64,000 nt of DNA from an uncultured Pseudomonadales bacterium. Lineage in GTDB: Bacteria; Patescibacteriota; Microgenomatia; UBA1400; UBA1396. Both the position numbers and the translations under genes were made by a program. Below the pieces are notes generated by a model that ran no database searches, was not told the origin of the DNA, and worked only from the letters and a program-made list of their open reading frames with translations. This document shows positions 4,798 through 37,097 of the stretch, piece after piece. Location of the stretch: the NCBI GenBank assembly GCA_964511175.1, contig CAZEEI010000005.1, positions 3,416 through 67,415 of the forward strand, read 5' to 3'. Numbering within the stretch: position 1 is the stretch's first letter; the number at the start of each line of letters is the position of its first letter.

Positions 4798-5220
4798 TTA
4801 TATCGCGTGCCTAGTACTATTCCGTTCAAGTTCGCTCTGCTTTTGTCGATAAAGCACTCGTTGCTCAATATCGCCAATTTGTGGTACCTTTTGTTGAGCG
4901 ATCGTGCTTAAAAGCAAATCACGCGCACCGGAATCTAGCCAGTCTTTAATCGGCAAGCGTAGTTTTTCGCCATTATTGGCTAGAATAATAATTTCTCCCC
5001 AGTGATGCCACACCTCCAGTTCAGGAATTAGCCCCACCACGCTATCTTCTTTAACCGACTGCCCACGCTGTCGAGCTAATAATCTGGACTGATCCAGAAA
5101 TCTCATCTCATCGCGAACGGCCACAATGTCTGTGGCCAATAATTGTGTAGTCCCAACCGCGACCATCAACTGAGGAGAGCCTTCTTTACTACTGCGACCT
5201 ACTGTTAATAATCTGTTCAT
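4798..5220 (-). CDS. hypothetical protein (140 aa)
   Basis: ATG with SD AAAGGA 8 nt upstream; no recognisable domain. Confidence 0.5.
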   Translation of the reverse strand: MNRLLTVGRSSKEGSPQLMVAVGTTQLLATDIVAVRDEMRFLDQSRLLARQRGQSVKEDSVVGLIPELEVWHHWGEIIILANNGEKLRLPIKDWLDSGARDLLLSTIAQQKVPQIGDIEQRVLYRQKQSELERNSTRHAI

Positions 5221-5405: not shown

Positions 5406-6923
5406 CTACCTATTTGTCGCTGACTCAATTAACTGTTCCAGCAGGGTAATGGCCTCTTCAATATGTGTGGGCTCAGTGCGTGGATGCATTAATACGGCGC
5501 GGTAAGTCCATTGTTGTCTTTCAGCGGGTGACAAAGCATCAACTGACTCATCTACACTTAAGTTGGTGGCGGAAAAGAAATATCCCGACTGATCACGCAG
5601 TTGTTGTCTGGTTAACTCGATGATTGGCTCCAGTTGAGAATTATGGGTTATACCATGCCTGCGACAATACTCGGGTCGGATGGTGAAACAAACCACGTTG
5701 AGATGCGGCTTGTGCAGAGGCTGAAGTATCGGAGAGGCTAAGAGCCGTCGATAAAGGTACCCTGTATTATTCAGAGTGTGGTCTAAAAGTGCTTGCCACT
5801 CTTGTTTAGAAAAAGCATTGATGGCAGCCACGGTGGCTAAAACACAACCCGCCCCCGCCGATCCTTCAATTCTTTTCTGTCCAAGACTAACTTGTCCTGG
5901 CTTGAAAACATAAGCAGCATCATCCGAATCAAATTTTATTTTAGCGTGTTCATGAGGATCACGAAAAACGACTGCCCCAGCCTCATATGGCGTGTTTAAC
6001 GTTTTATGTGGATCCAGTGTAACCGAATTGGCTCTTTGAATACCCTTAAACAAATGTTTTTGGGTAGACATTAGATACGCAAATCCATAGGCGGCGTCTA
6101 CGTGGAGATAAATGTGATATTTCTTAGCGATATCCGCAATAGCATTAAGAGGGTCAACAATACCAGTTTCCGTTTCGCCAGCAATTGCGACAATTGCCAT
6201 AATTTTTTTGCCGCTGTCCGTAATTTCGCGGATCATCGCTTCTAGACCAGCCGGATCCATTTGGAGATTACGACTAGGAGCCTTAAGAACTGAGATTGAT
6301 CCATTGGGTCCGGCCAGAATGCGTACTGCTTTAGTGATGGAGTAATGGATAAACGGATTAGCAATAACGACGAACTCATTATTAGGACGTTCAGTGGTTG
6401 TTAGTCTTTCACGCTCAGCTTTTTCGGAGGCTAACTCACGGGCGACCCAAAGAGCGGTAAGGTTGGCCAGCGAGCCGCCGGAGGTAAAAGTCCCGCTGGC
6501 GCTCTTTTTGTCAAAACCAACTAACTCAGCCAACCAACCAATAGCCTCCGGTTCTAAGGCTGACTCTACTTCCGAAACTTCCCGGGCAACCGTATTAGAT
6601 CCAGACCGAATAGCCAGAATATATGCCAGCATCGCCGGAATTGAAGCCTCCGTCAACATATGACCAAGATAAAACTTATCAAAACGCTGCGCCTTTTTAA
6701 GGTGTTCAAAAATACGTTGAATAGCCTGCATCGCTTGGGGATTTTTTCTACTTACAAAACCCCGATCTCCATCCGCCATGTTTTGCAGAAGAATATAGAA
6801 TTGTTCGAGCTCGGCATCGTGATTTTCAGGGTCAAAAAAAGCAGCTCGCGCTGCCTCTAAATCAGATTGGTTAACCCTAAATTTAAACTCAGGATTTTGT
6901 TTTCGCGATCCTCGCTTATTCAT
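5406..6923 (-). CDS. pyridoxal-phosphate-dependent group II amino-acid decarboxylase (fold type I)
   Basis: HVDAAYGFAYL...SVTLDPHKTLNTPYEAGAVVFRD carries the S-x-HK PLP-lysine motif of GAD/TyrDC/MfnA-type decarboxylases. The supplied ORF starts at TTG 6983; ATG at 6923 (MNKRGSRKQ..., GGTGA upstream) is preferred. Confidence 0.8.
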   Translation of the reverse strand: MNKRGSRKQNPEFKFRVNQSDLEAARAAFFDPENHDAELEQFYILLQNMADGDRGFVSRKNPQAMQAIQRIFEHLKKAQRFDKFYLGHMLTEASIPAMLAYILAIRSGSNTVAREVSEVESALEPEAIGWLAELVGFDKKSASGTFTSGGSLANLTALWVARELASEKAERERLTTTERPNNEFVVIANPFIHYSITKAVRILAGPNGSISVLKAPSRNLQMDPAGLEAMIREITDSGKKIMAIVAIAGETETGIVDPLNAIADIAKKYHIYLHVDAAYGFAYLMSTQKHLFKGIQRANSVTLDPHKTLNTPYEAGAVVFRDPHEHAKIKFDSDDAAYVFKPGQVSLGQKRIEGSAGAGCVLATVAAINAFSKQEWQALLDHTLNNTGYLYRRLLASPILQPLHKPHLNVVCFTIRPEYCRRHGITHNSQLEPIIELTRQQLRDQSGYFFSATNLSVDESVDALSPAERQQWTYRAVLMHPRTEPTHIEEAITLLEQLIESATNR

Positions 6924-6995
6924 TATCACCGCTCCGTCAGAATTACAATTATTGATATTAGCATAAAAGATATTAATCGACAATATCCAATCAAT

Positions 6996-8093
6996 CTATA
7001 TCAATAGATTCTGAATTAATTCTTCATTTACAGCAAAACCTAATCCCAATTGTCGAGATACTTTGACGGTACCATTCTTGGTCATGGTAATTTCCGGCAC
7101 AATAATATCTTCTGTAAAAATCTTAGCCGAAGGAAAAATATCTGCTGGCAAACTAAACTCCGATAGTGAGGCGGTAAAAATATTAAAGGCATTAGCTATA
7201 CCCGCTTCCAACATGCCACCACACCATAGAGGGATATTTTGTTCTTTGGCCAACTGGTTAATTTGTAAAACCTCGACCAGACTGCCAATTCTTCCCGGCT
7301 TCACGTTAATAATGCCGCATGCTTTTAATTCTATGGCTTTTTTAGCTTTGGAATAACTAACAATGCTCTCATCCAAGCAAATTGGTGTTTTGATCTCTTT
7401 TTGTAATAATGAATGGTGCCAAAGGTCATCAAACTCCAAAGGTTGTTCAATCATTAATAAGTTAAAGTTATCCAATTGCTTGAACGTATCTAAATCATCG
7501 AGGGTGTAAGCTGAGTTAGCATCAACCATCAATACTAAATCGGGAAAAGACTGGCGAATAATTTTTACCAACTCCACATCCCAACCCGGCTTAATTTTCA
7601 CCTTAATACGATGATATCCTTCCTCAACACGCTTGGTAATTAGTTGCAAGGTTTCGTCAACGGTGGGTAAAATACCTATACTTTCGCCTAAATTTATCTC
7701 TCGACGTGTTCCGCCCAGCAAATCTACAATTGGTTTGCCCGAAATTTGGGAAATGATCGACCATAATGCACATTCCACGCCAAATTTAGCGATCTTATTG
7801 CCGCGTAAATGTTGTGTCTCTTGGTAGAAATCACTAGGTGTTAAAGCCTTATTCAAAACAATTGGTTTTAAAACATTTTCTAATATCGCTATAACCGTAT
7901 CGGTTGATTCCTCCAGATAAACAGGCTCCGTCAAGGCAGCTGACTCGCCGTAGCCAACAACGCCATCATCTGTTGTTAATTTAATAACCACCGTTTCCCG
8001 AAATGGTATGTCACCAAAACTAGTCTTGAAGGTAAACTTCATTGGCAGTCTCAGGCGAAAAATATCAAATCGGGCAATCTGAACGGGTGTCAT
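6996..8093 (-). CDS. enolase-superfamily enzyme, MLE subgroup (N-succinylamino-acid racemase / o-succinylbenzoate synthase / dipeptide epimerase-like)
   Basis: KVKIKPG (KxK), metal ligands in MVDANSAY, MIEQP, CLDES, and catalytic Lys in VKPGRIG; 365 aa; SD GGAGG 9 nt upstream of ATG. Confidence 0.8.
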   Translation of the reverse strand: MTPVQIARFDIFRLRLPMKFTFKTSFGDIPFRETVVIKLTTDDGVVGYGESAALTEPVYLEESTDTVIAILENVLKPIVLNKALTPSDFYQETQHLRGNKIAKFGVECALWSIISQISGKPIVDLLGGTRREINLGESIGILPTVDETLQLITKRVEEGYHRIKVKIKPGWDVELVKIIRQSFPDLVLMVDANSAYTLDDLDTFKQLDNFNLLMIEQPLEFDDLWHHSLLQKEIKTPICLDESIVSYSKAKKAIELKACGIINVKPGRIGSLVEVLQINQLAKEQNIPLWCGGMLEAGIANAFNIFTASLSEFSLPADIFPSAKIFTEDIIVPEITMTKNGTVKVSRQLGLGFAVNEELIQNLLI

Positions 8094-8135
8094 AAAACTA
8101 ACCTCCGGAGGCTCAATTATCCATTTATCTAACCA

Positions 8136-9092
8136 TTAACGCAAGCTTGGAGAAGATTGAACAACGTAAAAACTTCTCTTTTTTGAACCATCCAAACCCG
8201 TAGCAAATCCTGTGATAAGTCCCCGGCGATTAATATAATCGCTAGCTGTTTCACTGGTCATTACCTGGCTACATACTTGACGAAGCTGCACTCGCCAGGC
8301 CGCACTGTCAGCCGCGGATAAAGAATCTACATCGTAAGGTATTTCGACTAAAAATTTGTTGGGTAGTGATTTTGAACCAACTTCAGCAATAATCGGCAAG
8401 TTTGCCACATCATTGAGTGTTAGTGGTTGATAACTACCTGTGTGAATACCATTAAGACGTTTTTTTGTTGCAGGTTCATTAAGATTCCAGCGCACAGTAA
8501 AGCGATCGGTTGGATTCTCGCCATAGAGTTCACTGGATACTCTGCCATATTTGTTTACTGTGTATTTGTAACCGACAGCCCCTAATTTTTCTAAGTTTAA
8601 CCTAGCATTACTGCCGCGAAGCGGATCGTAAGTCCAATCTATTTCCGCAATCCCTTTAGCTTTAGCCAGTGCAGCTTGAATAAGCGAAAGATTCCAGCCC
8701 AGATCCTTACGGTAGCGCAGTGAGGGGTTGACACCGATCATATGTAAAATAAGCTTGCCGTCGATTGTACCCATAGTGAACACAAATCCTTCAAGCTGAC
8801 CCGAATTGTTCCGCGCAACAACAACATCCCCACCGGTATCACCAGCTATTGCTAGTAAATTACTGGGAACTAAATCCCGCGCGCCCATACCCCAGACCTG
8901 ACCCTGCAAACTGGTCACTTCTTCCAGAGCGGGAATATTCTTCCAATCCACCACTGAAAAAATAGTGTCTTTTCCGGCAAGCTCTTTTTGCCAAGAACGC
9001 GGGTCGACCTGTTGAAAACCAAAATTCTCCGGCCGCAGATATCCAGCTTTGTCTATTTCTATTCCTGAGTGTTCTTTTTTTTGAAAAGGCAT
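8136..9092 (-). CDS. hypothetical protein (318 aa), possibly an acyl-CoA N-acyltransferase-fold protein
   Basis: ATG with GGAG SD; no firm motif. Its position between an NSAR-like enzyme and an aminotransferase suggests a pathway role. The fold assignment is inference only. Confidence 0.45.
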   Translation of the reverse strand: MPFQKKEHSGIEIDKAGYLRPENFGFQQVDPRSWQKELAGKDTIFSVVDWKNIPALEEVTSLQGQVWGMGARDLVPSNLLAIAGDTGGDVVVARNNSGQLEGFVFTMGTIDGKLILHMIGVNPSLRYRKDLGWNLSLIQAALAKAKGIAEIDWTYDPLRGSNARLNLEKLGAVGYKYTVNKYGRVSSELYGENPTDRFTVRWNLNEPATKKRLNGIHTGSYQPLTLNDVANLPIIAEVGSKSLPNKFLVEIPYDVDSLSAADSAAWRVQLRQVCSQVMTSETASDYINRRGLITGFATGLDGSKKRSFYVVQSSPSLR

Positions 9093-9100
9093 CTATACTC

Positions 9101-10276
9101 CTATCTTTGATCCATGATGATCTTTAGCCGCCGATCCAATTCGTGTATATTCGCCTCATTGCCAGGTATACGTAGCCTAACTATTGAATCATCCATTTTT
9201 GCGTGAGTAGGTTTGAATGTTCCACCATCCTCAGAGCTAACTCCATATTCTAAGAGTTTGCCATAAAATCCTTCTGGTCCTCTGGCCATTAAAATACTTA
9301 CGGAAGGATGGGTGGGAGCCACGGCAACATTATTCGCCTGTAGAACCTCCACCAATTTAGTCTTCAGACTAGCAGTCTTAGCTCTAATTCCTGGTAAGAA
9401 CTTGGCCAGTATTTGAGAGTTAAGAGCAACTTGACTAAGCAAGTGAGTGATAGCATCGACGGTAAAAACCAGTTCAAAATTGCGGTACACATCACCCAAA
9501 TCCTTGGACATAACCGCATAACCCAAACGCGGAGAAGCCAGGCCTATCCCTTTAGAGATAGATCGCAAAACAATGAGATTAGAAAATTGTTCTGTCAATG
9601 GAATAGCCGAGTTCTGGTCGTCTATCAAATCGGCATAGGCTTCGTCAATGATAACGAGGTCTCTATTTTGAGTAACTTGAAGCAATCTGGATAACATTTG
9701 TTGGGTAACAGCGTCACCGGTTGGGTTGTTGGGATTATCAACATAAATTACCGCTTCTTTACGACTTTTTCTGCGATTATCAATCAGGGCCTGAATACTA
9801 TCTACCATTGGTGAGCCTAATTCCAGCTGAATGGGAAAATAGGGGATAGCAGCCCGGTCAGCCAGTAAAGCAATGTTAGTGAACTGCGGACCATAACCAA
9901 TCACTTGAGCGCCACCACGCACGGCATCATGAGAAACAAAGTCTGATAATATTGCCGCTAACAGGCCATAGCTCCCTGCACCATTAAAGAAAATCGGAGA
10001 AATTGGATTGCCGTCTTTATCTCTGTGATCGGTAAGACCAAAACGTCTTCGCACACTCTCTTGCAACTTACGAGCGTAAGGATCCTCGGGATATTCATTG
10101 ATCAAGCGTGGCGTAATTTTGCGGAGAGCGGCATTAATTTCTCTAGGATATCCCAATGGTGAATGTCCTAAACCGCAATCAATTAGAGGAAAATTAGGGT
10201 TAGTTTTAGGCTTCTGAGAAACATAATCTTCACGCTCAATGGGCCTCTTTAACAATCTTGCTCTGACTTTATTCAT
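9101..10276 (-). CDS. class I/II pyridoxal-phosphate aminotransferase (HisC-like)
   Basis: LVIIDEAYADL...LIVLRSISKGIGLASPRLGYAV with the SxSK PLP lysine; 391 aa. Confidence 0.8.
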   Translation of the reverse strand: MNKVRARLLKRPIEREDYVSQKPKTNPNFPLIDCGLGHSPLGYPREINAALRKITPRLINEYPEDPYARKLQESVRRRFGLTDHRDKDGNPISPIFFNGAGSYGLLAAILSDFVSHDAVRGGAQVIGYGPQFTNIALLADRAAIPYFPIQLELGSPMVDSIQALIDNRRKSRKEAVIYVDNPNNPTGDAVTQQMLSRLLQVTQNRDLVIIDEAYADLIDDQNSAIPLTEQFSNLIVLRSISKGIGLASPRLGYAVMSKDLGDVYRNFELVFTVDAITHLLSQVALNSQILAKFLPGIRAKTASLKTKLVEVLQANNVAVAPTHPSVSILMARGPEGFYGKLLEYGVSSEDGGTFKPTHAKMDDSIVRLRIPGNEANIHELDRRLKIIMDQR

Positions 10277-10325
10277 ATTTTACAAGTATATGGGTTTTGC
10301 ATATTTTACAAGTATATGGGTTTTG
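10274..10325. repeat. perfect tandem direct repeat, 2 x 26 bp (CATATTTTACAAGTATATGGGTTTTG)
   Basis: Copies at 10274-10299 and 10300-10325 are identical. Copy 1 includes the aminotransferase start codon (CAT is the complement of ATG). Confidence 0.85.
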
Positions 10326-10363
10326 TTCGTGCTGTCAATAATTAGTCATGATAGAATTTAACC

Positions 10364-11440
10364 ATGACCAAAACTCGGGAAGATCTATTAAAAATAATTA
10401 AATCTTTAGTAAGCTACCAAACAACTAATGATAATTTCGCTGCCATTACGGAATGTTATAACTATGTTGATCGACAATTAGATTTTTTCCCATTCCATAA
10501 AAAAATTATCAACCACAACGGTGTCAAGTCGCGCCTTTGGACAACCACAAAAAATAAACATCACACCTATATTTTAAATGCCCACGTCGATGTTGTGCCG
10601 GGAAGTAATAAATTATTCGCTCTGCGGCGCAAAAACGATAAACTATTTGGCCGTGGTGTTTCCGATATGAAGTACGCCATAGCGGTTTACATCCAAACTT
10701 TGCGCACTTTATACGAAAAAACAAAACGGCTGCCATCTCTGGCCCTAATCCTGACCGCAGATGAAGAGCGGGGCGGCCTAAATGGGACGGGCTATCTGGT
10801 TAAAGATTTGGGTTATCGGGCTGACCTTGCTTTTGTGCCGGATGGAGCAGAAAACGATCGTATTGTTGAAGAAGCCAAAGGAGTACTACAACTTAAAATT
10901 ACAACGCGGGGTAGGAGTGCTCATGCCGCGCGATTGTGGGAGGGGATAAGTGCCATTGATAATTTATGTCAAGTAATTGATCAATTGCGCCAGAAATACC
11001 CTTTTCCATCCAAACCCGTCTGGAAGACAACTTTAAACTTAGGGCAAATTAGTGGCGGGCAACAAACTAACCAGGTGGCAGATGAGGCTTCTCTTCTAGT
11101 CGATATTCGTTATACACCCAATCAATCCACGGCAAATATCTTGGAAAACATACGTAAAATTTGCCCAGGTTGTTTGGTAGAAATAGTTGTTAAAGCCGAT
11201 GCTTTTCAGATCAATCGTCAAAATCCTTATATCCAGAAATGGAACCAGATTTTAACTAAAGGCGATAAAAATGCATTTATCCGTGAAGACGGGGCTTCGG
11301 ATGGCCGCTACTTTACCGCCCAAGGAATTCCAACCATTGTTAGTAAACCAGAAGGTGGCCTCATTCATACGGAAAAGGAGTGGACCAGCCTTAGTTCGAT
11401 TGAACATTTCAGCCAATGTTTACAGCAGTTTCTCTCATAG
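10364..11440 (+). CDS. M20 family metallo-hydrolase (ArgE/DapE/N-acyl-amino-acid deacylase-like)
   Basis: LNAHVDVVPG, GRGVSDMKYAIAVYI (DMK motif), ADEERGG; 358 aa. Confidence 0.8.
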   Translation: MTKTREDLLKIIKSLVSYQTTNDNFAAITECYNYVDRQLDFFPFHKKIINHNGVKSRLWTTTKNKHHTYILNAHVDVVPGSNKLFALRRKNDKLFGRGVSDMKYAIAVYIQTLRTLYEKTKRLPSLALILTADEERGGLNGTGYLVKDLGYRADLAFVPDGAENDRIVEEAKGVLQLKITTRGRSAHAARLWEGISAIDNLCQVIDQLRQKYPFPSKPVWKTTLNLGQISGGQQTNQVADEASLLVDIRYTPNQSTANILENIRKICPGCLVEIVVKADAFQINRQNPYIQKWNQILTKGDKNAFIREDGASDGRYFTAQGIPTIVSKPEGGLIHTEKEWTSLSSIEHFSQCLQQFLS

Positions 11441-11476
11441 TGGGAGTTATTGCTATATAATGCAGTAGGAAACAGC

Positions 11477-12520
11477 ATGACATTATCAGAATTCAAACAA
11501 GAAATTGATTCAGCTCAACAAAAACTTACCGATCTATCGGAGTCAGCCGAACTTAAGACGCTTTTTTTCAGTAAAAAAAGTGGTATTTTCACCAAATTAT
11601 CCAAGGAGTTAGCAAATTTATCTGGTGATAAAAAAGAGGCTGGACTACTTTTATGTTCTTTAAGAATTAAAATTGATAAACAAATAAGAAAGTTGTCAAG
11701 CAATACTCATTCTGTTTGGCAGGATCCCACCCTGCCGCCAGAGGACGTTGAGCTAGGTCGTCTGCACCCCGTTTCCCAGGCCATCCGCGACATCACCCGC
11801 ATTTTTGAGCGGATCGGCTTCACCCGCGCACGTTACCCGGAAGTGGACTGGGACTACTACGCTTTCACCAGCCTCAACATGCCGGCTAATCATCCCGCCC
11901 GCGATGAATGGGAGACTTTCTTTGTGGACGCACCGGCTAATGCGGAGAAGGGCAAAATGGTTCTCACTCCCCACACCAGTAACGGCCAGGTACGGGAAAT
12001 GGAACGCCTCCATCACCAGCCACCGATCCGCATGATTAATATTGCCCGTTGTTACCGTCGTCAACAAGATGTGACTCACACCCAGATGTTCCACCAATTT
12101 GAAGGGTTGGTGGTAGACCAGGGGATCAATATCCAGCACCTCAAAGGCACCATTGATCATTTTGCTCATGAGTTTTACGGTCCAGGCACCAAGTCACGAT
12201 TGCGCCCTTTTCATTTTCAGTTCACCGAGCCATCTTTTGAGGTCGATTTTTCTTGTACCATTTGTGGTGGTTCTGGCAAGGTACTTGACGGTGAAAAGAG
12301 TGAAAAATGCCGTTTTTGTAAATCCGGCTGGCATGAAGTAGGGGGCGCCGGCATGGTCCATCCCAACGTCCTGCGTGCCGGCGGTATTGATCCAGAGGTG
12401 TACACTGGTTTTGCCTTCGGCTGGGGAATCGAACGCACTTATGCCCTCCAAAAAGGTTTAAACCTCGACGATATTCGTCAGCTTTATAGTAGTGATTTAC
12501 GTTTTCTGCAGCAATTCTAG
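11477..12520 (+). CDS. pheS: phenylalanine--tRNA ligase alpha subunit
   Basis: FTEPSFEVDF...GWHEVGGAGMVHPNVL...FAFGWGIER class II motifs. The supplied ORF starts at TTG 11450; ATG 11477 has an AGGAAA SD. Contains a CxxC...CxxC insertion. Confidence 0.88.
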   Translation: MTLSEFKQEIDSAQQKLTDLSESAELKTLFFSKKSGIFTKLSKELANLSGDKKEAGLLLCSLRIKIDKQIRKLSSNTHSVWQDPTLPPEDVELGRLHPVSQAIRDITRIFERIGFTRARYPEVDWDYYAFTSLNMPANHPARDEWETFFVDAPANAEKGKMVLTPHTSNGQVREMERLHHQPPIRMINIARCYRRQQDVTHTQMFHQFEGLVVDQGINIQHLKGTIDHFAHEFYGPGTKSRLRPFHFQFTEPSFEVDFSCTICGGSGKVLDGEKSEKCRFCKSGWHEVGGAGMVHPNVLRAGGIDPEVYTGFAFGWGIERTYALQKGLNLDDIRQLYSSDLRFLQQF

Positions 12521-12529
12521 GAGCTTAAT

Positions 12530-14518
12530 ATGAACATTTTAATTCCTCATTCCTGGCTAACCGAATACCTTAAGACTAAAGCTGAACCCGCTGATATCCA
12601 GCGGATGCTGGCTCTCTGCGGCCCTTCCGTGGAGCGAATTGAAGAAGTCGAAGGCGAGCCAGTCTACGATATTGAAATCACCACCAACCGTGTCGATTCG
12701 TTCTCAATTTTAGGAATTGCGCGGGAAGCAGCGGTTATTCTGCCACAGTTTGGCATCGAGGCCAAACTAGCACCACCTATTTTGCCTCTACCAAAAACCA
12801 ATACTGATAACAGCGCTTTGCCACGTTTCACCAATGATCCCAGCCTGAATCGCCGTGTCTTGATGATTTTACTCACGGGCGTTAAACACACCCCCACACC
12901 ACCTTGGATGGCGCGACGCCTGCGTCAGATCGGCCAGAATGTTCATGATAGTGTCATCGACATTACCAACTACATTACGCACGAATTAGGTCACCCCTGT
13001 CACGCTTTTGATGCGGATAAGCTCCAACAACTTGGCGGTGAAATAATTGTGAAAACCGCCAAAGCCGGTTGGCCCTTCACCACGCTGGATGGCGAGTCTT
13101 ACACTACAGTGGGTGGCGAGGTTGTGTTTGTTAACCCGACTGGTGAAATTATTGATCTACCAGGCGTTAAAGGGACAGCCAATAGTGCGGTTGATGACCA
13201 GACCAGTAACGTCTTGTTCTTCATTGAGTCCATTCTGCCGGAGAAAATTCGTTTCACCTCCATGACCCACGCAATTCGTACGCAAGCGGCCCAAATCAAC
13301 GAAAAAGACATTGATCCCCACCTAGCTGACAATACGCTACGGCGGGCGGTCCAGCTTTATCAGGAGTTGACGAGTGCCCAAGTCGCCAGTCCAGTATATG
13401 ACGACTTTCCTGGTAAAAAACTACCTCAAACCATCTCGCTTTCCTTAGCAAAAGTGGTTACTTACCTAGGAATAGAGCTCTCGTTGGAAAAAATCAGCGA
13501 CATCCTAGTTGCTTTGGACTGCCAGGTTGAATCTACTGACGCCAATACCGTGCTAGTTACGCCGCCTACTTACCGCCCGGACTTAAGCATTGAAGCTGAT
13601 TTAATTGAGGAAGTCGCGCGGATCTACGGCTACCACAACTTGCCTAGCGTGTTAATGCCAACCGCCGTTCCCACTATTTATCCGGAAGGCACCAACTTCC
13701 CGCTGGAAGAACGGGTACAACAGTTGCTAGCCGACTTGGGCTACCAGGAACTCTATACTTATTCCCTGGTGAGCGAAGAACTAGCGCGGTTGGTTGATGC
13801 TAACCTAGAGAACACCTTGCCACTCCGCAATCCTTTAACTAGTGACGCGGCCTATTTGCGGCGGCATATTCTGCCCTCTCACGTGGAAGCGATGCATCGC
13901 CAACTGCCCTACACTAAGCTGCGCGGTAGTTTTGAGTTAGCTAATGTTTATGCACCCAGAGAGGGTGATCTGCCGGACGAGCACTTGGTTTTAGCTATTC
14001 TGGACCGTGATTTACGCGCCTTGCGTACTAGTTTGATGGCGCTGTTTAACCGCCTTCACTTAACGGGGATTAAAGTGGATATGACCGAACATAATCCGAA
14101 AATGGCTGATAGGAAAGGGCTTTTTTCAGGTAGTATGGCCGTTATCAGTTGCCACGATCGAGTGCTAGGAAAGATTGGCTATCTTCCTGAAGGATTAGTG
14201 GGTGCAGAGCTGGAGTGGCGCCAATTATTAGCGGTCGCCCGCCGGTATCCAGCGTACCGCAGCTTGCCCACCACGGCGCCTTATTTCGAAGATATCACCC
14301 TAACGATTCCTAACGGCTTACCGGTGGGTAAAGTTCTCACTGCACTGGAATCAGTTAGTGAAGTAATCGATAAAGTCATCCTGCTGGACCGCTACCAAGA
14401 CCGTTGGACTTTCCGTCTACGTTACTGGGACCGAGAGAAACAAGTTGATGCCCAACAAGCCCAGCAGCTGCAGGAACAGGCTTTGGCGGCAGTCGCAAAA
14501 CTGGGCGTAGGATTTTAA
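12530..14518 (+). CDS. pheT: phenylalanine--tRNA ligase beta subunit (short form)
   Basis: 662 aa directly downstream of pheS with a GGAG SD; B3/B4 and catalytic-like core regions recognisable. Confidence 0.85.
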   Translation: MNILIPHSWLTEYLKTKAEPADIQRMLALCGPSVERIEEVEGEPVYDIEITTNRVDSFSILGIAREAAVILPQFGIEAKLAPPILPLPKTNTDNSALPRFTNDPSLNRRVLMILLTGVKHTPTPPWMARRLRQIGQNVHDSVIDITNYITHELGHPCHAFDADKLQQLGGEIIVKTAKAGWPFTTLDGESYTTVGGEVVFVNPTGEIIDLPGVKGTANSAVDDQTSNVLFFIESILPEKIRFTSMTHAIRTQAAQINEKDIDPHLADNTLRRAVQLYQELTSAQVASPVYDDFPGKKLPQTISLSLAKVVTYLGIELSLEKISDILVALDCQVESTDANTVLVTPPTYRPDLSIEADLIEEVARIYGYHNLPSVLMPTAVPTIYPEGTNFPLEERVQQLLADLGYQELYTYSLVSEELARLVDANLENTLPLRNPLTSDAAYLRRHILPSHVEAMHRQLPYTKLRGSFELANVYAPREGDLPDEHLVLAILDRDLRALRTSLMALFNRLHLTGIKVDMTEHNPKMADRKGLFSGSMAVISCHDRVLGKIGYLPEGLVGAELEWRQLLAVARRYPAYRSLPTTAPYFEDITLTIPNGLPVGKVLTALESVSEVIDKVILLDRYQDRWTFRLRYWDREKQVDAQQAQQLQEQALAAVAKLGVGF

Positions 14519-16130: not shown

Positions 16131-18863
16131 TTAAATTAACGTCACATTTAACTGAGCACTGCTGGAACTAGTCGGTGTGGGAATCGGTGTTGAGGGAGCT
16201 GGCGTTGGAGTGGTCGGCACAGGCGTAGGGGTGGGTTCACGCCAATCCTCATTACTGGTGCCAATGTGAACGTCACCAGTTTTGCCTTCCTTGCCGTCGG
16301 CTCGAATCGCTTTAGCGTACAAAGTGTAGCGGCCGCGCGGCAAATTCAGAGTCGTGTTGTAGGGTTTTTCCCGCAAGGTTTCGCGCAAAGAACCGTTAAC
16401 GTAGATTTCGACGCGATCCACTTTTTCTTCCGAAACAGTTTCCACTTCTATCCCGATATTCTCCTCACTATAAGAATGTTCATTCTCCGGTTTTTTCAGT
16501 AGCACCACTACCTCTGCCTGCGAGTCACAATACTCGGTGGGGGCACGATAATCATTGGGATTGGGCTGACCGTTGACCCAGGCGTCAATCGCTTCCTGGT
16601 AACGATTGCGCCCATCTTGGCTAATCGGATCATCTTCACGCAGGTTAGTAACAATCTTTTCTTCCCAGTTGCCGCGCTGAATATCCACGGCGGTAGCTAG
16701 TTTATTCTGACCTTTACAGAGCCGCGCTTTTTGGTGAATCGGATCCGGGCCAGTTGGTAGAGAACCTTTAATTACCCATTCCTCTTTGGCAGCCAGCTCG
16801 TCATGCGCCGGCCAACCGGAAACAGCATCAACTTGTACTTTTTCGACCCCCTCCGGTACGGGGAAAGGATCGGTCGTGCGACCACTGGCAATTGCCGCCA
16901 GCATAATGCGCCGCCAAATCGGTGAAGCACCGGTAATACCAGAAGCCACTTGTTTCATCTCCGAGTTATCATTGTTACCCACCCACACACCTACGATCGT
17001 GGACAAGCTCCAGCCAATCGTCCAGTTATCGCGTTTATCGTTGGTCGTACCGGTTTTGACAGCAATCGGGCGATTTTGAATATTCAGTTGGGAACCGCGG
17101 CCAAAGGCGCCGGAACGGGCGTCGTCGTCGGACAAAATCGAGTTGATGAGGAAGGACTGTTCAGGCGTGAGCACCTGCCTGCCCGCCACGTCACGGTGCT
17201 TAAAAAGGGTCTGACCTTGGGTGTTTTTGACTTCCAAAATGGAGACCGGTTCGATCCGGTGGCCTTGGTTAGCAAAAGCGCTGTAGGCCGACACTGTGTC
17301 GATTAAGTGCACTTCCGCGCCGCCCAAAGTGACGGACAAACCATAATTGCGCAGGTTTTCCGTGGTTGGTTCCAGTGTGGGAAAACCTAAATCATAGGCG
17401 GTGGCCAACATGTTAGACACACCTACCTGCGACAACAATTTTACAGCCACCACGTTGTTGGATTCAGCCAAACCGCGCCGCAGGGGCATTGGACCACGGA
17501 ATTTGTTGTCATAGTTGTTGGGCTGGTAAGGCTTGGCTGAATCGTTGGGGGCAAACACTGTGGAAGCATCCACCACCATGGTTGCTGGCGTCTTGCCCTG
17601 CTTAAATGCGGTCACGTACGTTACCGGTTTAATCGAAGAACCAGGCTGGCGTAGACCATCCACGGCGACGTTAAACTTGCCAGGGATATCTTCGGCAAAA
17701 TAATCCTTACTGCCGATCATCGACAAAATCTCACCATTGCGCGGATCCATCACGATCGTGGCACCGTTACTGATATTAAAGTTTTTTACCTTTTCTAACT
17801 CTTCCTGCACAATCGTTTCAGATTCCTGCTGGAAAGGAAGGTCTAGGGTTGTGGTCACCGTCAGGCCACCTTTTTCAACCAGCTCCGAACCAAATATTTC
17901 CTCTAACTGGTCCTGCACATAAAACACAAAGTGAGGCGCTTGAATCGGAATGGTTTGGCGCGCAAAAGCCAACGTGTCCATTTGCCGTAGCGCTTCTGCT
18001 TCCAGTTCCGACGAAATATACTCATCTTCCCGCATCCGGCGCAGTACGCCCTCGGTCCGCCAACGCCAGAGGGGAACGCCGTCCTCCGTAGTGCGTCCCA
18101 AAAATGGTGAGTAGGCTGTGGGCCGTTGAGGCAAACCAGCCAGGACGGCCGACTCAATCAGAGTTAGATCAGCCACTGGCTTATTAAAATAGACCTGTGC
18201 GGCCGCACCAATACCTACCGCCGTACCACCATAGGGCGTTTCGTTCAGATACATTTGCAAAATCTCATCTTTCGAAAATTGACGTTCAATTTCTAAAGCC
18301 AGAATAAACTCCCGCAATTTGCGCGTAATGGTGCGCTCGTTGGAAAGTAAGGCATTCTTGACTAGCTGTTGAGTGAGCGTTGAACCACCAATTAGACGCC
18401 TTTTGGTAACCAGGTTATAGGCAATGCGCAGGGGAGTGAGGGGGTCAAAACCGCCGTGTTTATAAAAATCCTTGTCTTCAATGGCCACGGTAGCTTGGCG
18501 CAGATAGGGAGAAACTTGATCAATTGTGATTGGCAGACGCTGTTCGGTATTAAATACGTCGTAAAGCACCGTGCCGTTGCGGTCGGTGATTTTGGTGCTG
18601 AACCCTTCCGTGCGTCGTACACCGCTGGGATCAGGTAAATCACTAGCCACCCAGGCCACTAGAGCCACAAACCCCACGATACCAACCAAAACACTCGCAA
18701 TCGCCCCTAAAGCCAGGAGGCGCAGTAAACGAGCCCGCCACATAGTGCCGTGCTTAGCCGTTAACCGCCGCTCCGCCCAGCGAGCGTGGAAGCGCGCCCG
18801 TCGTTTAGAACGGTGCATTAACCGCCCTACATAACGATTGATTTGCCGCCACCAGCTAACCAT
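16131..18863 (-). CDS. class A penicillin-binding protein (glycosyltransferase + transpeptidase), PBP1A-like
   Basis: GT51 motifs (EDKDFYKHGG, RKLREF..ALEIER), transpeptidase SSIKP (SxxK) and KTGTT. C-terminal Pro/Thr-rich tail PTPTPVPTTPTPAPSTPIPTPTSSS. The supplied ORF starts at TTG 19070; the first ATG (18863) precedes the TM helix. Confidence 0.8.
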   Translation of the reverse strand: MVSWWRQINRYVGRLMHRSKRRARFHARWAERRLTAKHGTMWRARLLRLLALGAIASVLVGIVGFVALVAWVASDLPDPSGVRRTEGFSTKITDRNGTVLYDVFNTEQRLPITIDQVSPYLRQATVAIEDKDFYKHGGFDPLTPLRIAYNLVTKRRLIGGSTLTQQLVKNALLSNERTITRKLREFILALEIERQFSKDEILQMYLNETPYGGTAVGIGAAAQVYFNKPVADLTLIESAVLAGLPQRPTAYSPFLGRTTEDGVPLWRWRTEGVLRRMREDEYISSELEAEALRQMDTLAFARQTIPIQAPHFVFYVQDQLEEIFGSELVEKGGLTVTTTLDLPFQQESETIVQEELEKVKNFNISNGATIVMDPRNGEILSMIGSKDYFAEDIPGKFNVAVDGLRQPGSSIKPVTYVTAFKQGKTPATMVVDASTVFAPNDSAKPYQPNNYDNKFRGPMPLRRGLAESNNVVAVKLLSQVGVSNMLATAYDLGFPTLEPTTENLRNYGLSVTLGGAEVHLIDTVSAYSAFANQGHRIEPVSILEVKNTQGQTLFKHRDVAGRQVLTPEQSFLINSILSDDDARSGAFGRGSQLNIQNRPIAVKTGTTNDKRDNWTIGWSLSTIVGVWVGNNDNSEMKQVASGITGASPIWRRIMLAAIASGRTTDPFPVPEGVEKVQVDAVSGWPAHDELAAKEEWVIKGSLPTGPDPIHQKARLCKGQNKLATAVDIQRGNWEEKIVTNLREDDPISQDGRNRYQEAIDAWVNGQPNPNDYRAPTEYCDSQAEVVVLLKKPENEHSYSEENIGIEVETVSEEKVDRVEIYVNGSLRETLREKPYNTTLNLPRGRYTLYAKAIRADGKEGKTGDVHIGTSNEDWREPTPTPVPTTPTPAPSTPIPTPTSSSSAQLNVTLI

Positions 18864-18884
18864 ACCGTTATTTAGTATACCGGA

Positions 18885-20873
18885 ATGCGCTACAATGCCG
18901 CCAGGGGAGTCATGATCTGGGATCAACGTGTCACTACTATTCCGGGGGTGGGACCTAAGCGCGCCCAATTGTTGGCCGAAATGGGCCTGCAAACCATTGG
19001 CGATCTGGCCCTTAATCTTCCTAGCCGTTACTTGGATGCGTCGCAAGTTACCCCAATTGCTCATCTGCAACCTAACACTACCATCACTTTACACGTCACG
19101 GTAGAGACAGCGCGACTAATCCACACTCGTTCCCGCCAATCAATTGTCACGGCTACGGTTAGCGACGCCAGCGGTAAGTTGCCACTCACTTTTTTCCATC
19201 AGCCCTACATTATCAAAAAATTACCGGTTGGCGAAAAAGTGGCCCTCATGGGAAATGTCTCGGTTTACCAAAAAAAATTAACTCTAATTAATCCTACTGT
19301 GGAAAGCTTAGCCCGGGAAGAATCGATCCACACCGGTCGGATTATTCCGATCTACCGTCAACACGAAACTTTAAAGGCTGCCTGGCTGCGTCAGACGCTT
19401 TTTACTTTGCTGAAGGCGGCATTGCCGGAGTTAAGCGACTCTCTGCCAGATAATATTTTGCGGCAGGAACAGCTAATGCCTTTTCCGGAGGCAATTTGGC
19501 AAGCCCATTTTCCGGATTCGCTGGCACAGGCCGAGGCGGCGCGGCGGCGGCTGGCGTTTGCCGAATTGTGGGACGTTTTCGTCCAACTGCGGGAGCAGGA
19601 CGCGGCCCGGCGCCAGAAAACCGCCGCCGCCGCACTGGAGCCAAACTGGCTAACTGATTTCTACCAGCAATTCCAAACTATCGCGCCCTTCCCGCTGACC
19701 GCCAGCCAACAAACCGCCTGCCAAGAATTGATGACCCTTTTAACCCAAACTCACCCCGATTTTCACCTGGTTCAGGGCGAGGTCGGTAGCGGTAAAACTT
19801 TAGTCGCCGCTTTTGTGCTCCTGGCGATGGCGGCGGCCGGACACCAAGCCCTTTACTTAGCCCCCACCACTGTTTTAGCTCAACAACATTACCAAACACT
19901 CTCGCCACTGGCCGCCGCGCTCAATCTTTCGCTTGCTCTCTGGACTGGCCAGCAAAAATCCAACCAAACTGCGTCCATCCTCATCGGCACCCACGCTCTT
20001 TTGCACCAGCCGGAGCGTTTTTTACCTGGCATTGTAGTTATCGACGAGGAGCACCGGTTTGGCGTGCGCCAGCGCGGCACATTTTGGGAGGGACACTCAC
20101 CTACTGCGCCCGAGGGAAGGGTTCCTCACTTAGTCTCCTTAACCGCCACACCCATTCCCCGCACCCTGGCGCACGCCCTATACGGCTCCCACACCACTTC
20201 CTATCTCCAACCTATTCCTGGCCAGGAAAAGCAAATTACCACGCGCGTCTTTGATCATACCCGTCTAATTCAACATTTCGCCTGGCTGCAAACCCAAATT
20301 GCCACCGGCGCGCAGGTTTTTCTCATTACTCCCTTCATCAACGCCTCCGAAGCCGAAGGTCTCACCGAAGTTTATGATGCCCAGTCGCTCTACCAGCGCG
20401 CTGAGCAGGAACTACCGCAAGCTAGAATCGCTTTGCTTACCGGCCAAACCAAACCGGCGGCTAAACAAAAAATTCTTAACCAAATGCAAGCGGGCAAATT
20501 AGATGTTCTGGTAGCCACACCGGTCATCGAGGTTGGTATTGATATCCCGCACGCCAGCATCATGACCATTTTTAGCGCCGAACGCTTTGGTCTAGCGCAA
20601 CTGCACCAACTGCGCGGTCGGGTAGGACGCCGCGGCCAGGAGAGCTGGTGTTTCCTGGTACCGTCGCCCAACCTTACTGATACCAAACGGTTGGTTAAAC
20701 TCACCCGCGTCAATGACGGCAGCCAATTAGCCGAAATTGACCTGCAAACACGTGGGGTAGGCGAGTTCTTAGGTACCCGCCAGTCTGGCTGGGATACGCT
20801 GCGCACGGCCGATTGGCTGGATCTAAGACTGATTGAGCAAGTTAAGCGGGTTCAGGACCAAATATTGGCTTAA
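18885..20873 (+). CDS. recG: ATP-dependent DNA helicase RecG
   Basis: GEVGSGKTLVAAF (Walker A), VIDEEHRFGV (DEEH), helicase C motifs; alternative start ATG 18912. Confidence 0.85.
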   Translation: MRYNAARGVMIWDQRVTTIPGVGPKRAQLLAEMGLQTIGDLALNLPSRYLDASQVTPIAHLQPNTTITLHVTVETARLIHTRSRQSIVTATVSDASGKLPLTFFHQPYIIKKLPVGEKVALMGNVSVYQKKLTLINPTVESLAREESIHTGRIIPIYRQHETLKAAWLRQTLFTLLKAALPELSDSLPDNILRQEQLMPFPEAIWQAHFPDSLAQAEAARRRLAFAELWDVFVQLREQDAARRQKTAAAALEPNWLTDFYQQFQTIAPFPLTASQQTACQELMTLLTQTHPDFHLVQGEVGSGKTLVAAFVLLAMAAAGHQALYLAPTTVLAQQHYQTLSPLAAALNLSLALWTGQQKSNQTASILIGTHALLHQPERFLPGIVVIDEEHRFGVRQRGTFWEGHSPTAPEGRVPHLVSLTATPIPRTLAHALYGSHTTSYLQPIPGQEKQITTRVFDHTRLIQHFAWLQTQIATGAQVFLITPFINASEAEGLTEVYDAQSLYQRAEQELPQARIALLTGQTKPAAKQKILNQMQAGKLDVLVATPVIEVGIDIPHASIMTIFSAERFGLAQLHQLRGRVGRRGQESWCFLVPSPNLTDTKRLVKLTRVNDGSQLAEIDLQTRGVGEFLGTRQSGWDTLRTADWLDLRLIEQVKRVQDQILA

Positions 20874-20903: not shown

Positions 20904-21761
20904 ATGGTTATAGCTAAAGATCGCATTTATCCTGACCAAGTTATTCCTTTAAGTCTAACCGCCGTGGTTTGCTTAACCGGCGTACTGCTGCTTTATGCCG
21001 TTATCCTGCTGCTAAATCGGCTGGTGGTGGCCCGTGAGACGATCATCGCTCAACTGCACCCGGCTGACATTTTGGTTGGCATGACTATCTACCTCAAGAC
21101 CTCCATTGACTTCGCTATCTTTATCGGCCGTTTAATGCACCGCTACCCCGGTTGGAAAAACCGCATTATGATCGAAGTGGGTACTGCCCTGGGCAATATT
21201 GCTGGCACCCTGGGCATATTGGTCATTTGGGATCTTTTTCGCGAAGTACGGGTGTTGATGGCTGGGATGATCTTTCTGGCCGGTCTGGTCCTGCTGCGCA
21301 TGGCCGAAGATGGACTAGAGCACGTTAAGGATGAAGCGGGCAAGTACCAAGTGAGTTTCGACGGACTGGAGATTACGTTTGAGCGTTGGTTGTCCCGTGT
21401 CAATAAATTAGTGGCACCGGTACTGAACCGTTTAATTCCCGCCATGCACGTTGATGAGACAACCCAAAAGGCTGGTTTCCGGGCAGTGTTTCTTTTATCC
21501 TTTACCATTCCCTTTATCTTGGGTCTGGATGATTTTGCTGGCTATATTCCGCTTTTTAACATTGTTAACGTGTTTGGATTTGCCACCGGAGTTTTCCTGG
21601 GACACATGATTTTGAATATCGCTTTATTCTTGTCACCGCGCCTAACCATCCGCCTGGTTAAACATCCACTAATTTCCTTTACCGGCAGTTTGGCTTTTGT
21701 CGGTCTAGCCTTCTGGGGTTTCTGGGAAGCGGCTAAACTCATCGGTTTTGCGGCCCACTAA
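20904..21761 (+). CDS. hypothetical integral membrane protein (about 7 TM)
   Basis: 285 aa, highly hydrophobic; ATG start. Confidence 0.5.
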   Translation: MVIAKDRIYPDQVIPLSLTAVVCLTGVLLLYAVILLLNRLVVARETIIAQLHPADILVGMTIYLKTSIDFAIFIGRLMHRYPGWKNRIMIEVGTALGNIAGTLGILVIWDLFREVRVLMAGMIFLAGLVLLRMAEDGLEHVKDEAGKYQVSFDGLEITFERWLSRVNKLVAPVLNRLIPAMHVDETTQKAGFRAVFLLSFTIPFILGLDDFAGYIPLFNIVNVFGFATGVFLGHMILNIALFLSPRLTIRLVKHPLISFTGSLAFVGLAFWGFWEAAKLIGFAAH

Positions 21762-22457: not shown

Positions 22458-22595
22458 GATTATGAAAATATATCCCTTTTTCATGTAGTAGTGTAGTGAT
22501 GCATGAAAAAACGATGCACTCCACCAGCGCGATGGTGACGAGTACGGCAAACCTTATTTGTTTTCAGCATTACACAATGTAGGTATAGTAGGTAT

Positions 22596-28739: not shown

Positions 28740-28741
28740 AA

Positions 28742-30523: not shown

Positions 30524-30549
30524 ACTTACCAGGTTACCACGAGCCGGGT

Positions 30550-32358: not shown

Positions 32359-32379
32359 GCTTCCAGTATACACAACTTC

Positions 32380-34112: not shown

Positions 34113-34121
34113 TGGACCCGC

Positions 34122-34736: not shown

Positions 34737-34792
34737 AATCCACCAACCTCAACTAATATTAAGAGTAGGGACTCTCCTTTGGCTTGTCAAGA

Positions 34793-35995: not shown

Positions 35996-35999
35996 AAGC

Positions 36000-37064: not shown

Positions 37065-37097
37065 ATCTTTATTCTATTCTAATTCTAGGGCGAACGC

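Follow-up and report, generated by a model that had tools for sequence, protein, structure and literature searches.

Papers from the Glasner laboratory describe a pathway, of the type known from Geobacillus, in which a GNAT succinyltransferase, an enolase-superfamily enzyme of the NSAR/OSBS subfamily (NSAR, N-succinylamino acid racemase; OSBS, o-succinylbenzoate synthase), and an M20 L-desuccinylase convert D-amino acids to their L-isomers; operons of this kind occur in Lysinibacillus and Roseiflexus. Another irreversible racemization pathway, DgcN-DgcA, N-acetylates D-Glu and then employs an enolase-superfamily N-acetyl-D-Glu racemase (PMC12363236). This study analyzed a five-gene cluster at positions 5406–11440 of a 64,000-nucleotide stretch of DNA (the window) from the contig CAZEEI010000005.1 of an uncultured bacterium. 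The cluster encodes the three enzyme classes of the Geobacillus-type route and two pyridoxal phosphate (PLP) enzymes, an aminotransferase and a decarboxylase. We propose that the locus encodes an irreversible D-to-L conversion (deracemization) pathway of the Geobacillus type that is extended by the two PLP enzymes. As a whole, this proposal has, in our judgment, about an even chance of being correct; the three-enzyme core is likelier than the whole explanation, and we rate any specific role for the PLP enzymes lower.

All five open reading frames (ORFs) lie where the earlier note on this DNA had placed them, four consecutively on the minus strand and the fifth, encoding the M20 enzyme, divergently on the plus strand. 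Similar to the Geobacillus-type route, the three enzyme classes are encoded together and follow the logic of acylation, racemization, and stereospecific hydrolysis; the racemase is 41% identical to the Sporosarcina enzyme and belongs to the same NSAR/OSBS subfamily, and the GNAT shares its family with the Sporosarcina GNAT. The locus differs from that route in that its host is a Patescibacteria-like organism with a reduced genome, its M20 enzyme is ArgE/DapE-like and not of the M20D type, its GNAT protein carries an extra N-terminal extension of ~50 amino acids (aa), the aminotransferase and the decarboxylase are fixed members, and there is a link to pheST or tyrS. The protein families, catalytic residues, operon signals, and conserved linkage described in the following paragraphs are observations, whereas the activities, the stereochemical direction, the acyl donor, the substrate, and the roles of the two PLP enzymes are predictions.

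The enolase-superfamily gene (6996–8093, minus strand) encodes a protein of 365 aa with MR_MLE_N and MR_MLE_C domains. The protein scored 324.2 bits (cut-off, 200.65) against TIGR01928, a model named for low-GC/archaeal "OSBS" that also spans the NSAR/OSBS subfamily as a whole, and its residues 12–335 aligned with positions 1–324 of the 325-position model. This result places the enzyme in the NSAR/OSBS subfamily, in agreement with the NSAR/OSBS likeness noticed earlier. The scores against the models of L-Ala-D/L-Glu epimerases (AEEs) were below the cut-offs (NF041118, 92.6 versus 500 bits; NF011708, 73.7 versus 343 bits), and the score against the DgcA model NF042940 (101.8 versus 400 bits) leaves the protein outside the DgcA family. 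The locus shares with DgcN-DgcA the logic of acylation followed by racemization and the use of an enolase-superfamily racemase, but its racemase scores far below the DgcA cut-off, its acyltransferase belongs to another family, and DgcN-DgcA handles acidic substrates. The top matches in the Protein Data Bank (PDB) were the N-acylamino acid racemases (NAAARs) of T. thermophilus (2zc8, 294 bits) and D. radiodurans (1r0m, 275 bits), followed by OSBS/NSAR proteins of Listeria and Enterococcus and the Amycolatopsis NSAR (1sja); NAAAR/NSAR entries scored ~245–294 bits, whereas dipeptide epimerases scored ~85–109 bits.

The catalytic and metal-binding set of the racemase is intact, comprising the KxK motif (K164-x-K166), D191, E216, D241, K265, and R268; these residues were located by motif, and alignments to 2zc8 and 2ggg agree. 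Two-lysine, metal-assisted 1,1-proton transfer is the textbook mechanism of NSAR/OSBS enzymes. R268 is the counterpart of R266 of the Amycolatopsis NSAR, an arginine that, according to the Glasner laboratory, favors racemase chemistry; OSBS members of the subfamily also carry this arginine, many subfamily members are bifunctional, and the characterized NSAR/OSBS enzymes favor hydrophobic side chains (PMC12006748). We conclude from the sequence comparisons that the enolase-superfamily member belongs to the NSAR/OSBS subfamily, and we predict that it acts as an N-succinyl- or N-acyl-amino acid racemase.

The adjacent minus-strand gene (8136–9092) encodes a 318-aa protein that the earlier note had listed as unknown, suggesting structure prediction and naming GNAT as one candidate fold. 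Searches of Pfam, NCBIfam, and PDB sequences returned no match for this protein; its identity was resolved only by structure prediction and profile methods. An AlphaFold (AF2) model based on an alignment of 21 homologues reached a pLDDT of 89.7 and a pTM of 0.87, and Foldseek matched the model to GNAT acetyltransferases with a probability of 1.0 over ~170–200 residues, bearing out the suggested fold. The protein also has a family-specific C-terminal domain and the N-terminal extension mentioned above. A profile search of 1.84 billion representatives identified 3,847 cluster representatives as relatives, and distant relatives of ~260–290 aa match PF00583 directly. When the GNAT family of the window was aligned by hhalign with the Bacillaceae GNAT family of NSAR operons, the probability was 99.9% (E, 4e-34; 252 columns), and BLASTP aligned the window GNAT with the Sporosarcina GNAT at 33% identity (E, 4e-30). 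The modeled fold and the profile comparison, which shows homology over the full length, indicate that the protein is a GNAT-fold acyltransferase and that it shares a family with the GNAT encoded in the Sporosarcina M20-GNAT-NSAR operons; its predicted activity is that of a D-amino acid N-acyl(succinyl/acetyl)transferase.

One public source names the family members P0005, P0014, P0017, P0019, and P0021 "chorismate synthase" and other members "predicted GNAT superfamily acetyltransferase." Nothing in the sequence or the fold backs the former label, which may stem from the frequent chorismate-mutase neighbors or from a mis-seeded orthologue group. A separate canonical small GNAT of 178 aa (PF00583) is encoded at 1209–1745 on the minus strand, 3.6 kb from the cluster, and is unrelated to the 318-aa protein.

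The divergent gene (10364–11440, plus strand) encodes an M20 metallo-deacylase of 358 aa (PF01546 and PF07687) that is ArgE/DapE-like and is predicted to hydrolyze N-acyl-L-amino acids. Its scores missed the cut-offs of all the curated models (NF006399, 170.1 versus 381 bits; TIGR01910, the ArgE/DapE subfamily, 152.1 versus 217.6 bits; TIGR01892, 107.7 versus 297.7 bits), and we rejected an assignment as a DapE or ArgE equivalog. The best PDB match was 2rb7 (150 bits). The metal-binding and catalytic residues H74, D101, E134/E135, D160, and H335 are intact in the window enzyme and are kept in the Patescibacteria copies. The M20 ArgE/DapE enzymes and aminoacylases characterized so far are L-specific.

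To determine the gene linkage, one genome per species was scanned, and 60 loci carrying a GNAT-like gene were compared. These loci came from Patescibacteria, Chloroflexota (mostly Thermomicrobiales), Deinococcota (Thermus/Meiothermus), Bacillota (Sporosarcina), and Actinomycetota. The results revealed an NSAR/OSBS-type gene on the same strand within 1.5 kb of the GNAT gene in 58 of the 60 loci, and one of the two loci lacking an adjoining NSAR gene is cut off by the end of its contig. As the third partner there is usually an amide hydrolase of variable type, namely an ArgE/DapE-like M20 enzyme in Patescibacteria and Actinomycetes, an M20D enzyme in Sporosarcina, where the operon order is M20D amidohydrolase, 272-aa GNAT, and NSAR, and an Amidohydro_1 enzyme in Thermus. 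The fold of the 318-aa protein, its kinship to the Sporosarcina family, and this adjacency to NSAR genes favor the Geobacillus-type D-to-L route, which the earlier note had raised as one of two options; that part of its suggestion has gained ground, and the activities, the acyl donor, and the substrate stand as predictions.

Several of these loci carry additional genes. The Thermus/Meiothermus loci L054, L058–L061, L064, and L066 carry, in this order, NSAR, GNAT-like, Amidohydro_1, and CLC-type channel genes. The actinomycete loci L068 and L069 contain the GNAT-like and NSAR genes followed by an M55 D-aminopeptidase gene (293 bits) and an M20 gene, and the D-aminopeptidase links the GNAT-NSAR pair to peptides that contain D-amino acids. 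A 263-aa ORF directly after the NSAR gene in the Sporosarcina locus L053 (11940–12731) resembles, by eye, the Cu-oxidase_4 (YfiH/PgeF-like) gene of the window (21705–22550, minus strand).

In Patescibacteria, the aminotransferase and decarboxylase genes accompany the GNAT-NSAR-M20 trio in at least seven further contig types, with the order shuffled. All five families occur together in the independent contigs L010, L070, L071, and L073, and near-complete or partial sets occur in L001, L007, L002–L004/L011, L074, and L075. With AT and deC denoting the aminotransferase and decarboxylase genes and PBP a penicillin-binding protein gene, L010 (gatCA-tyrS-AT-GNAT-NSAR-M20-deC-argS) and L073 (pheS-pheT-PBP-GNAT-NSAR-AT-M20-deC-..-tyrS-recG; GCA_040961635.1, a 930-kb contig) have a colinear arrangement of the five genes, whereas L070 and L071 have them in two divergent units and L001 (GCA_964746005.1) and L007 have them partly dispersed. 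The L071 cluster lies between rplT and pheS (rplT-cluster-pheS-pheT), as in the window, with a different internal order, and the set has thus stayed linked despite rearrangement. The recurrence of the five families in different orders in independent contigs argues that the grouping is not due to chance. The linkage therefore holds in relatives, and the orthologues are not scattered, an outcome that would have spoken against the cluster as first described.

Some Patescibacteria loci depart from this pattern. In L075 (7224–9798, minus strand), the partner of a racemase 46% identical to that of the window is not a GNAT but a GCS2-type carboxylate-amine ligase of 484 aa (PF04107, 30.7 bits), and the pair is divergent from the deC-AT-M20 genes; the ligase may be a non-orthologous replacement of the acylation step. 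L074 contains M20, aminotransferase, and decarboxylase genes together with a gene for an FAD-dependent oxidoreductase, and no racemase gene was in view in that locus; as a speculation, this set would be an oxidase-plus-transaminase route to the same end. Flavoproteins of the FAD_binding_2/DAO-like type are encoded beside the decarboxylase in L074 (11574–12407) and among aromatic-pathway genes in L007 (15339–16823), and they may provide an oxidative route for D-amino acids. In L072 (3374–6524), a GNAT-like gene overlaps the end of a gene for a 238-aa chorismate-mutase-domain protein and is near genes for an AstE/AspA-type deacylase and a class Ib aminoacyl-tRNA synthetase (aaRS); no racemase gene was seen on this contig. 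An unannotated family of 283–298 aa, lacking a match in Pfam or NCBIfam, accompanies the cluster in L001 (9137–9988), L007 (4749–5600), and L074 (7862–8758). The L001 and L007 copies are 44–45% identical, the L074 copy is related only by eye (GVKVGW...RDEK.FD), and the family was not found in the window. The 298-aa protein of L074 was considered as a GNAT-like homologue and rejected on comparison.

On the basis of these findings, we propose the following pathway, in which every activity and the stereochemical direction are predictions. The GNAT would N-acylate a free D-amino acid with an acyl-CoA, possibly succinyl- or acetyl-CoA. The N-acyl amino acid would then be bound by the NSAR through Mg2+ held by D191, E216, and D241, and its alpha-carbon would be inverted by a 1,1-proton transfer in which K166 and K265 serve as the two bases and R268 tunes K265. 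The M20 enzyme would deacylate only the L-isomer, pulling the equilibrium toward the L-amino acid and rendering the conversion irreversible. The L-product could be charged onto tRNA, the pheS and pheT genes being located beside the M20 gene in the window and tyrS occupying that place in relatives; alternatively, it could be transaminated to or from a 2-oxo acid by the HisC-like aminotransferase or decarboxylated to an amine by the group II decarboxylase. Such a module would serve as a salvage route for an auxotroph and would clear away D-isomers, which are harmful to translation.

The two PLP enzymes are assigned at the superfamily level. The decarboxylase gene (5406–6923, minus strand) encodes a group II (fold-type I) PLP amino acid decarboxylase of 505 aa from an ATG at 6923; beyond this codon the reading frame continues to a TTG at 6983 (5406–6983), and the public copy is the 505-aa form. 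The protein matched PF00282 with 129.7 bits and carries the DPHK motif with the PLP lysine at residues 324–327, which places it in group II. The cut-offs of the curated models were far from reached (PanP, 192 versus 606.1 bits; 2,4-diaminobutyrate (DABA) decarboxylase, 146 versus 900 bits; MfnA, 128.5 versus 299.4 bits; enterococcal tyrosine decarboxylase (TyrDC), 105.2 versus 905.3 bits), and we rejected equivalog assignments as TyrDC (TdcA or MfnA), PanP, or DABA decarboxylase. The best PDB matches were DABA decarboxylase 8zpi, 4rit, GAD65/67, CSAD, and MfnA. Close homologues number ~55 and come only from metagenomes and metagenome-assembled genomes (MAGs) of the Candidate Phyla Radiation (CPR), after which the scores drop sharply to generic group II levels; their names are generic ("glutamate decarboxylase," "glutamate/tyrosine decarboxylase-like") and do not fix the substrate.

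The aminotransferase gene (9101–10276, minus strand) encodes a class I/II PLP aminotransferase of 391 aa on the HisC/CobD-like branch (PF00155/Aminotran_1_2). The protein matched PF00155 with 87 bits and has its PLP lysine, K242, in an SISK motif. It scored below the cut-offs for HisC (TIGR01141, 113.7 versus 276.55 bits) and CobD (TIGR01140, 97.8 versus 290.55 bits), and both equivalog assignments were rejected. Its PDB matches, with E values of ~1e-13 to 1e-14, were HisC enzymes and 4r2n, the phenylalanine aminotransferase of M. tuberculosis. The earlier description of a DPHK decarboxylase and a HisC-like aminotransferase thus stands for the superfamilies, whereas every equivalog cut-off was missed. 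In-cluster orthologues of the aminotransferase with 43–54% identity occur in L010, L070, L071, L074, and L075. In L002–L004 and L011, separate ORFs of 105 aa and ~272–282 aa make up the cluster aminotransferase, the split being due to a frameshift, an error in sequencing, or decay to a pseudogene; the gene is intact, with 384 aa, in L010.

The surroundings of the cluster provided clues to the substrate. Genes for chorismate mutase (CM_2), prephenate dehydratase (PDT), and/or prephenate dehydrogenase (PDH) flank the cluster in L001, L007, L070, L071, and L072, and tyrS adjoins it in L001, L002/L010/L011, and L007 and is near it in L073. L007 contains two tyrS genes within 9 kb (4–1236 and 7635–8885), one of which is inside the unit deC-tyrS-M20-GNAT-NSAR with gaps of 2–11 nt. 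This operon-embedded tyrS is 62% identical to the cluster-linked tyrS of L001 (15892–17139) and only 42% identical to the other tyrS of L007. We predict that the module most likely acts on D-amino acids with hydrophobic or aromatic side chains, for example D-Phe and D-Tyr, obtained from the surroundings or from a host; we place an aromatic substrate somewhat below an even chance.

Two described systems resemble this context in part. The enterococcal tyramine (TDC) cluster has the order tyrS-tdcA-tyrP-nhaC (PMC3315439). It likewise places a group II decarboxylase gene beside an extra tyrS-like gene, and tyrS is located directly at the decarboxylase gene in the CPR relatives L001 and L007; however, the window lacks tyrS, no antiporter gene is present at the locus, the score against the TyrDC model is 105 versus 905 bits, and the decarboxylase, which is the core of the TDC cluster, is an appendage of a racemization module here. 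In Bacillus subtilis, TyrZ is a second TyrRS that, as the work of Williams-Wagner et al. (2015) is cited in PMC11005379, discriminates strongly against D-tyrosine. The likeness is a duplicated TyrRS tied to D-amino acid handling, as with the second tyrS inside the L007 operon; the parallel holds for relatives and not for the window, and the CPR paralogue was compared by gene context and identity. A more specific version of our proposal would be a lineage-specific five-enzyme module for D-aromatic amino acids in Patescibacteria, in which D-Tyr and D-Phe would be acylated by the GNAT or by the ATP-dependent GCS2-type ligase and converted into L-forms for dedicated PheRS and TyrRS enzymes, the second TyrRS embedded in relatives possibly discriminating against D-Tyr, and the L-forms would be converted into an amine by the uncharacterized decarboxylase clade; the module would serve both defense and nutrition in an episymbiotic auxotroph. 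We regard this version as doubtful.

Nevertheless, several observations weigh against the D-to-L proposal and its aromatic extension. The 64-kb window showed no CoA, succinyl-CoA, or tricarboxylic acid cycle genes, organisms of this kind may have little succinyl-CoA, and the GCS2-type ligase in place of the GNAT in L075 implies that the acyl group may not be succinyl. The characterized G. kaustophilus transferase was not among the 120 matches listed in a homologue listing; the tie of the window GNAT to the known route depends on the Sporosarcina operon and the descriptions of the Glasner laboratory. Because the M20 enzyme belongs to a branch other than the Sporosarcina M20D, we can only assume that it is L-specific and which acyl groups it prefers. 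Both the aminotransferase and the decarboxylase are conserved, although neither is required for a D-to-L route. The nearest characterized relatives of the decarboxylase use Asp, DABA, Glu, or cysteine sulfinate and not aromatic amino acids, and the enzyme is no closer to aromatic decarboxylases than to others. L070 has a second aminotransferase with CM_2 and PDH/PDT, suggesting that the cluster aminotransferase is not simply the aromatic-biosynthetic one. A tblastn search of the window found no tyrS, CM_2, PDT, or PDH gene and no gene for the "c58" protein. The adjacency to aaRS genes is partly explained by a conserved backbone rich in translation genes (thrS-infC-rplT-pheST; tyrS-recG), and L010 is also flanked by gatCA and argS; because the pheST/PBP/tyrS/recG backbone is common to several loci, the aaRS adjacencies are not independent. 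No amine antiporter or amino acid transporter gene is present next to the cluster.

A rival explanation is the scavenging of pre-formed N-acyl amino acids or short peptides rather than of free D-amino acids. In such a case, the M20 enzyme would free amino acids from N-acyl amino acids or dipeptides of the host, the NSAR would open both enantiomers to use, the GNAT would have a side role in detoxification or re-acylation, and the aminotransferase and decarboxylase would catabolize the amino acid, yielding nitrogen, an amine, or pH or energy benefits. The M20, aminotransferase, and decarboxylase genes remain linked even in loci that lack the GNAT/NSAR pair or have it replaced (L074, L075), M20 enzymes are often dipeptidases or aminoacylases, and an M55 D-aminopeptidase is added in the actinomycete loci. 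By contrast, the GNAT and NSAR genes are neighbors in 58 of the 60 loci, which speaks for acylation as the step that feeds the racemase; no transporter gene adjoins the cluster, and a racemase is of little use in the absence of a stereospecific step on each of its two sides. We consider this explanation unlikely.

The five enzyme classes also correspond one for one to the activities of DapD, DapC, DapE, DapF, and LysA in the succinylase branch of diaminopimelate (DAP)/lysine synthesis, and the cluster could accordingly be a non-orthologous, N-acyl-protected biosynthetic pathway resembling that branch or ornithine synthesis, with a diamino acid or a diamine/polyamine as its product. The best curated matches of the M20 enzyme are DapE/ArgE models, those of the decarboxylase are DABA decarboxylase and PanP, and the organism makes peptidoglycan, MurD, an MraY-like gene, and PBP1 being encoded in the window. 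However, the acyltransferase, epimerase, and decarboxylase belong to families other than those of the succinylase branch, every equivalog cut-off was missed widely, and the surroundings of the cluster in ~10 CPR loci showed no dapA, dapB, asd, or arg genes, the neighbors being aromatic-pathway and aaRS genes. Moreover, the stereochemistry of NSARs is unlike the role of DapF; NSARs invert the acylated alpha-carbon, and the release of meso-DAP would then be beyond an L-specific M20 enzyme. In addition, phyla with normal DAP pathways carry the GNAT-NSAR pair. On the gene context and the stereochemistry, we set this reading aside as slightly less likely than scavenging.

Because the direction of the conversion is set only by the stereospecificities of the enzymes, the same three enzymes could run from L to D, through an L-specific transferase and a D-specific deacylase, and supply this peptidoglycan-building organism with a D-amino acid to be used in its wall or in a secreted signal. 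The Amidohydro_1 partner in Thermus belongs to a superfamily that contains D-aminoacylases. Nevertheless, the established L-specificity of characterized M20 ArgE/DapE enzymes and aminoacylases, the D-to-L direction of the known pathway, and the linkage to PheRS and TyrRS genes, which fits a supply of L-isomers, make the reverse direction quite improbable. The other option of the earlier note, salvage of murein peptides by an L-Ala-D/L-Glu-type dipeptide epimerase and an M20 dipeptidase, draws on the facts that the MLE subgroup includes dipeptide epimerases and that M20 includes dipeptidases such as PepV, both of which gave weak matches; it fails on the AEE scores of 74–93 bits against cut-offs of 343–500 bits, compared with 324 against 200.65 bits for NSAR/OSBS, on PDB neighbors that are NAAAR/NSAR proteins and not dipeptide epimerases, and on the conserved GNAT partner that it leaves unexplained, and we consider it very improbable. 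Least probable of all is that the enolase-superfamily member is the o-succinylbenzoate synthase (MenC) of menaquinone synthesis, for although TIGR01928 is named after OSBS, many NSAR/OSBS members are bifunctional, and a UbiA-family gene lies a few genes away in some Chloroflexota loci, no men genes were seen among the annotated ORFs of the window or in the CPR loci examined, the partners are a GNAT and an M20 enzyme, and the NSAR-enabling R268 is present, though OSBS subfamily members share it.

The layout of the locus is consistent with two transcription units. The four minus-strand genes are separated by 8, 42, and 72 nt. The best sigma-70-like promoter of the region, with 11 of 12 consensus matches (TTGACA-16-TATACT), is on the minus strand at 10338–10311, in the divergent intergenic region upstream of the aminotransferase gene; it is a consensus match only. 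An intrinsic-terminator-like hairpin with a 9-bp stem followed by a T run is located downstream of the decarboxylase gene (5263–5242, minus strand) and is the probable 3′ end of a four-gene operon. The promoter 5′ of the aminotransferase gene and the terminator 3′ of the decarboxylase gene thus bracket the four minus-strand genes. On the plus strand, the M20 stop codon is only 9 nt from pheS, and this spacing suggests that M20 and the genes of the alpha and beta subunits of the Phe-tRNA ligase, pheS and pheT (11450–14518, plus strand), which are context and not pathway enzymes, are probably co-transcribed as a second unit divergent from the first.

The divergent region contains a perfect 26-bp tandem duplication (10274–10325; Tandem Repeats Finder, 2.0 copies, 100% identity). 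The duplicated unit, CATATTTTACAAGTATATGGGTTTTG ×2, covers the aminotransferase start codon and the −10-like TATACT box, and the upstream copy contains, on the minus strand, a possible 9-codon ORF (MQNPYTCKI) whose TGA overlaps the aminotransferase ATG. The duplication may act as a leader or in regulation, or it may have arisen by a recent slip. An Rfam scan detected no riboswitch or T-box near the cluster, the only matches being a tRNA and a glmS ribozyme.

The GC content of the cluster is 42.6% (racemase gene, 39%), compared with 48.5% for the window, and the cluster splits an otherwise conserved infC-rplT/pheS-pheT string, with the same insertion point in L071. The low GC content and the interruption of this string suggest that the five-gene cluster is an inserted module. 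A 140-aa ORF (4798–5220, minus strand) lies between rplT and the decarboxylase terminator and has no family match and no homologue in any of the fetched loci.

The description of the host as CPR-like agrees with the closest homologues, which come from MAGs labeled as members of the Patescibacteria group, and with the type IV pilus, peptidoglycan, and translation genes of the window. A type IV pilus/type II secretion system (T2SS)-like block typical of CPR genomes (27681–38933) encodes PilM, a prepilin peptidase, a PilC-like T2SSF protein, and two T2SSE ATPases. The peptidoglycan-related genes encode PBP1 (16131–19070), a VanW-like protein, an MraY-like protein, and MurD. A glmS ribozyme (60510–60720, minus strand; 60.2 bits versus a gathering score of 37) lies upstream of the glmS gene (58702–60462, minus strand).

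A full-text search of an incomplete library, which is weak evidence of novelty, found no paper pairing Patescibacteria with N-acylamino acid racemase or Candidate Phyla Radiation with o-succinylbenzoate synthase. The three-enzyme core pathway is known; the new elements are its occurrence in a Patescibacteria lineage together with a fixed aminotransferase, a CPR-specific decarboxylase clade, and an association with aromatic aaRS and biosynthesis genes. The locus does not represent a new kind of biochemistry unless the extended module does more than the known route.

CPR/Patescibacteria are thought to have almost no amino acid metabolism and to live off hosts, and the surroundings of bacterial cell walls are rich in D-amino acids. 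The locus points to a predicted function for a large unannotated GNAT family, whose 3,847 cluster representatives have no Pfam or NCBIfam model; it also extends the NSAR pathway to new phyla and flags an uncharacterized decarboxylase clade and an aminotransferase. If the proposal is correct, a conserved operon that rescues D-amino acids would be a testable case of CPR organisms drawing on a nutrient pool that is closed to most cells and harmful to translation.

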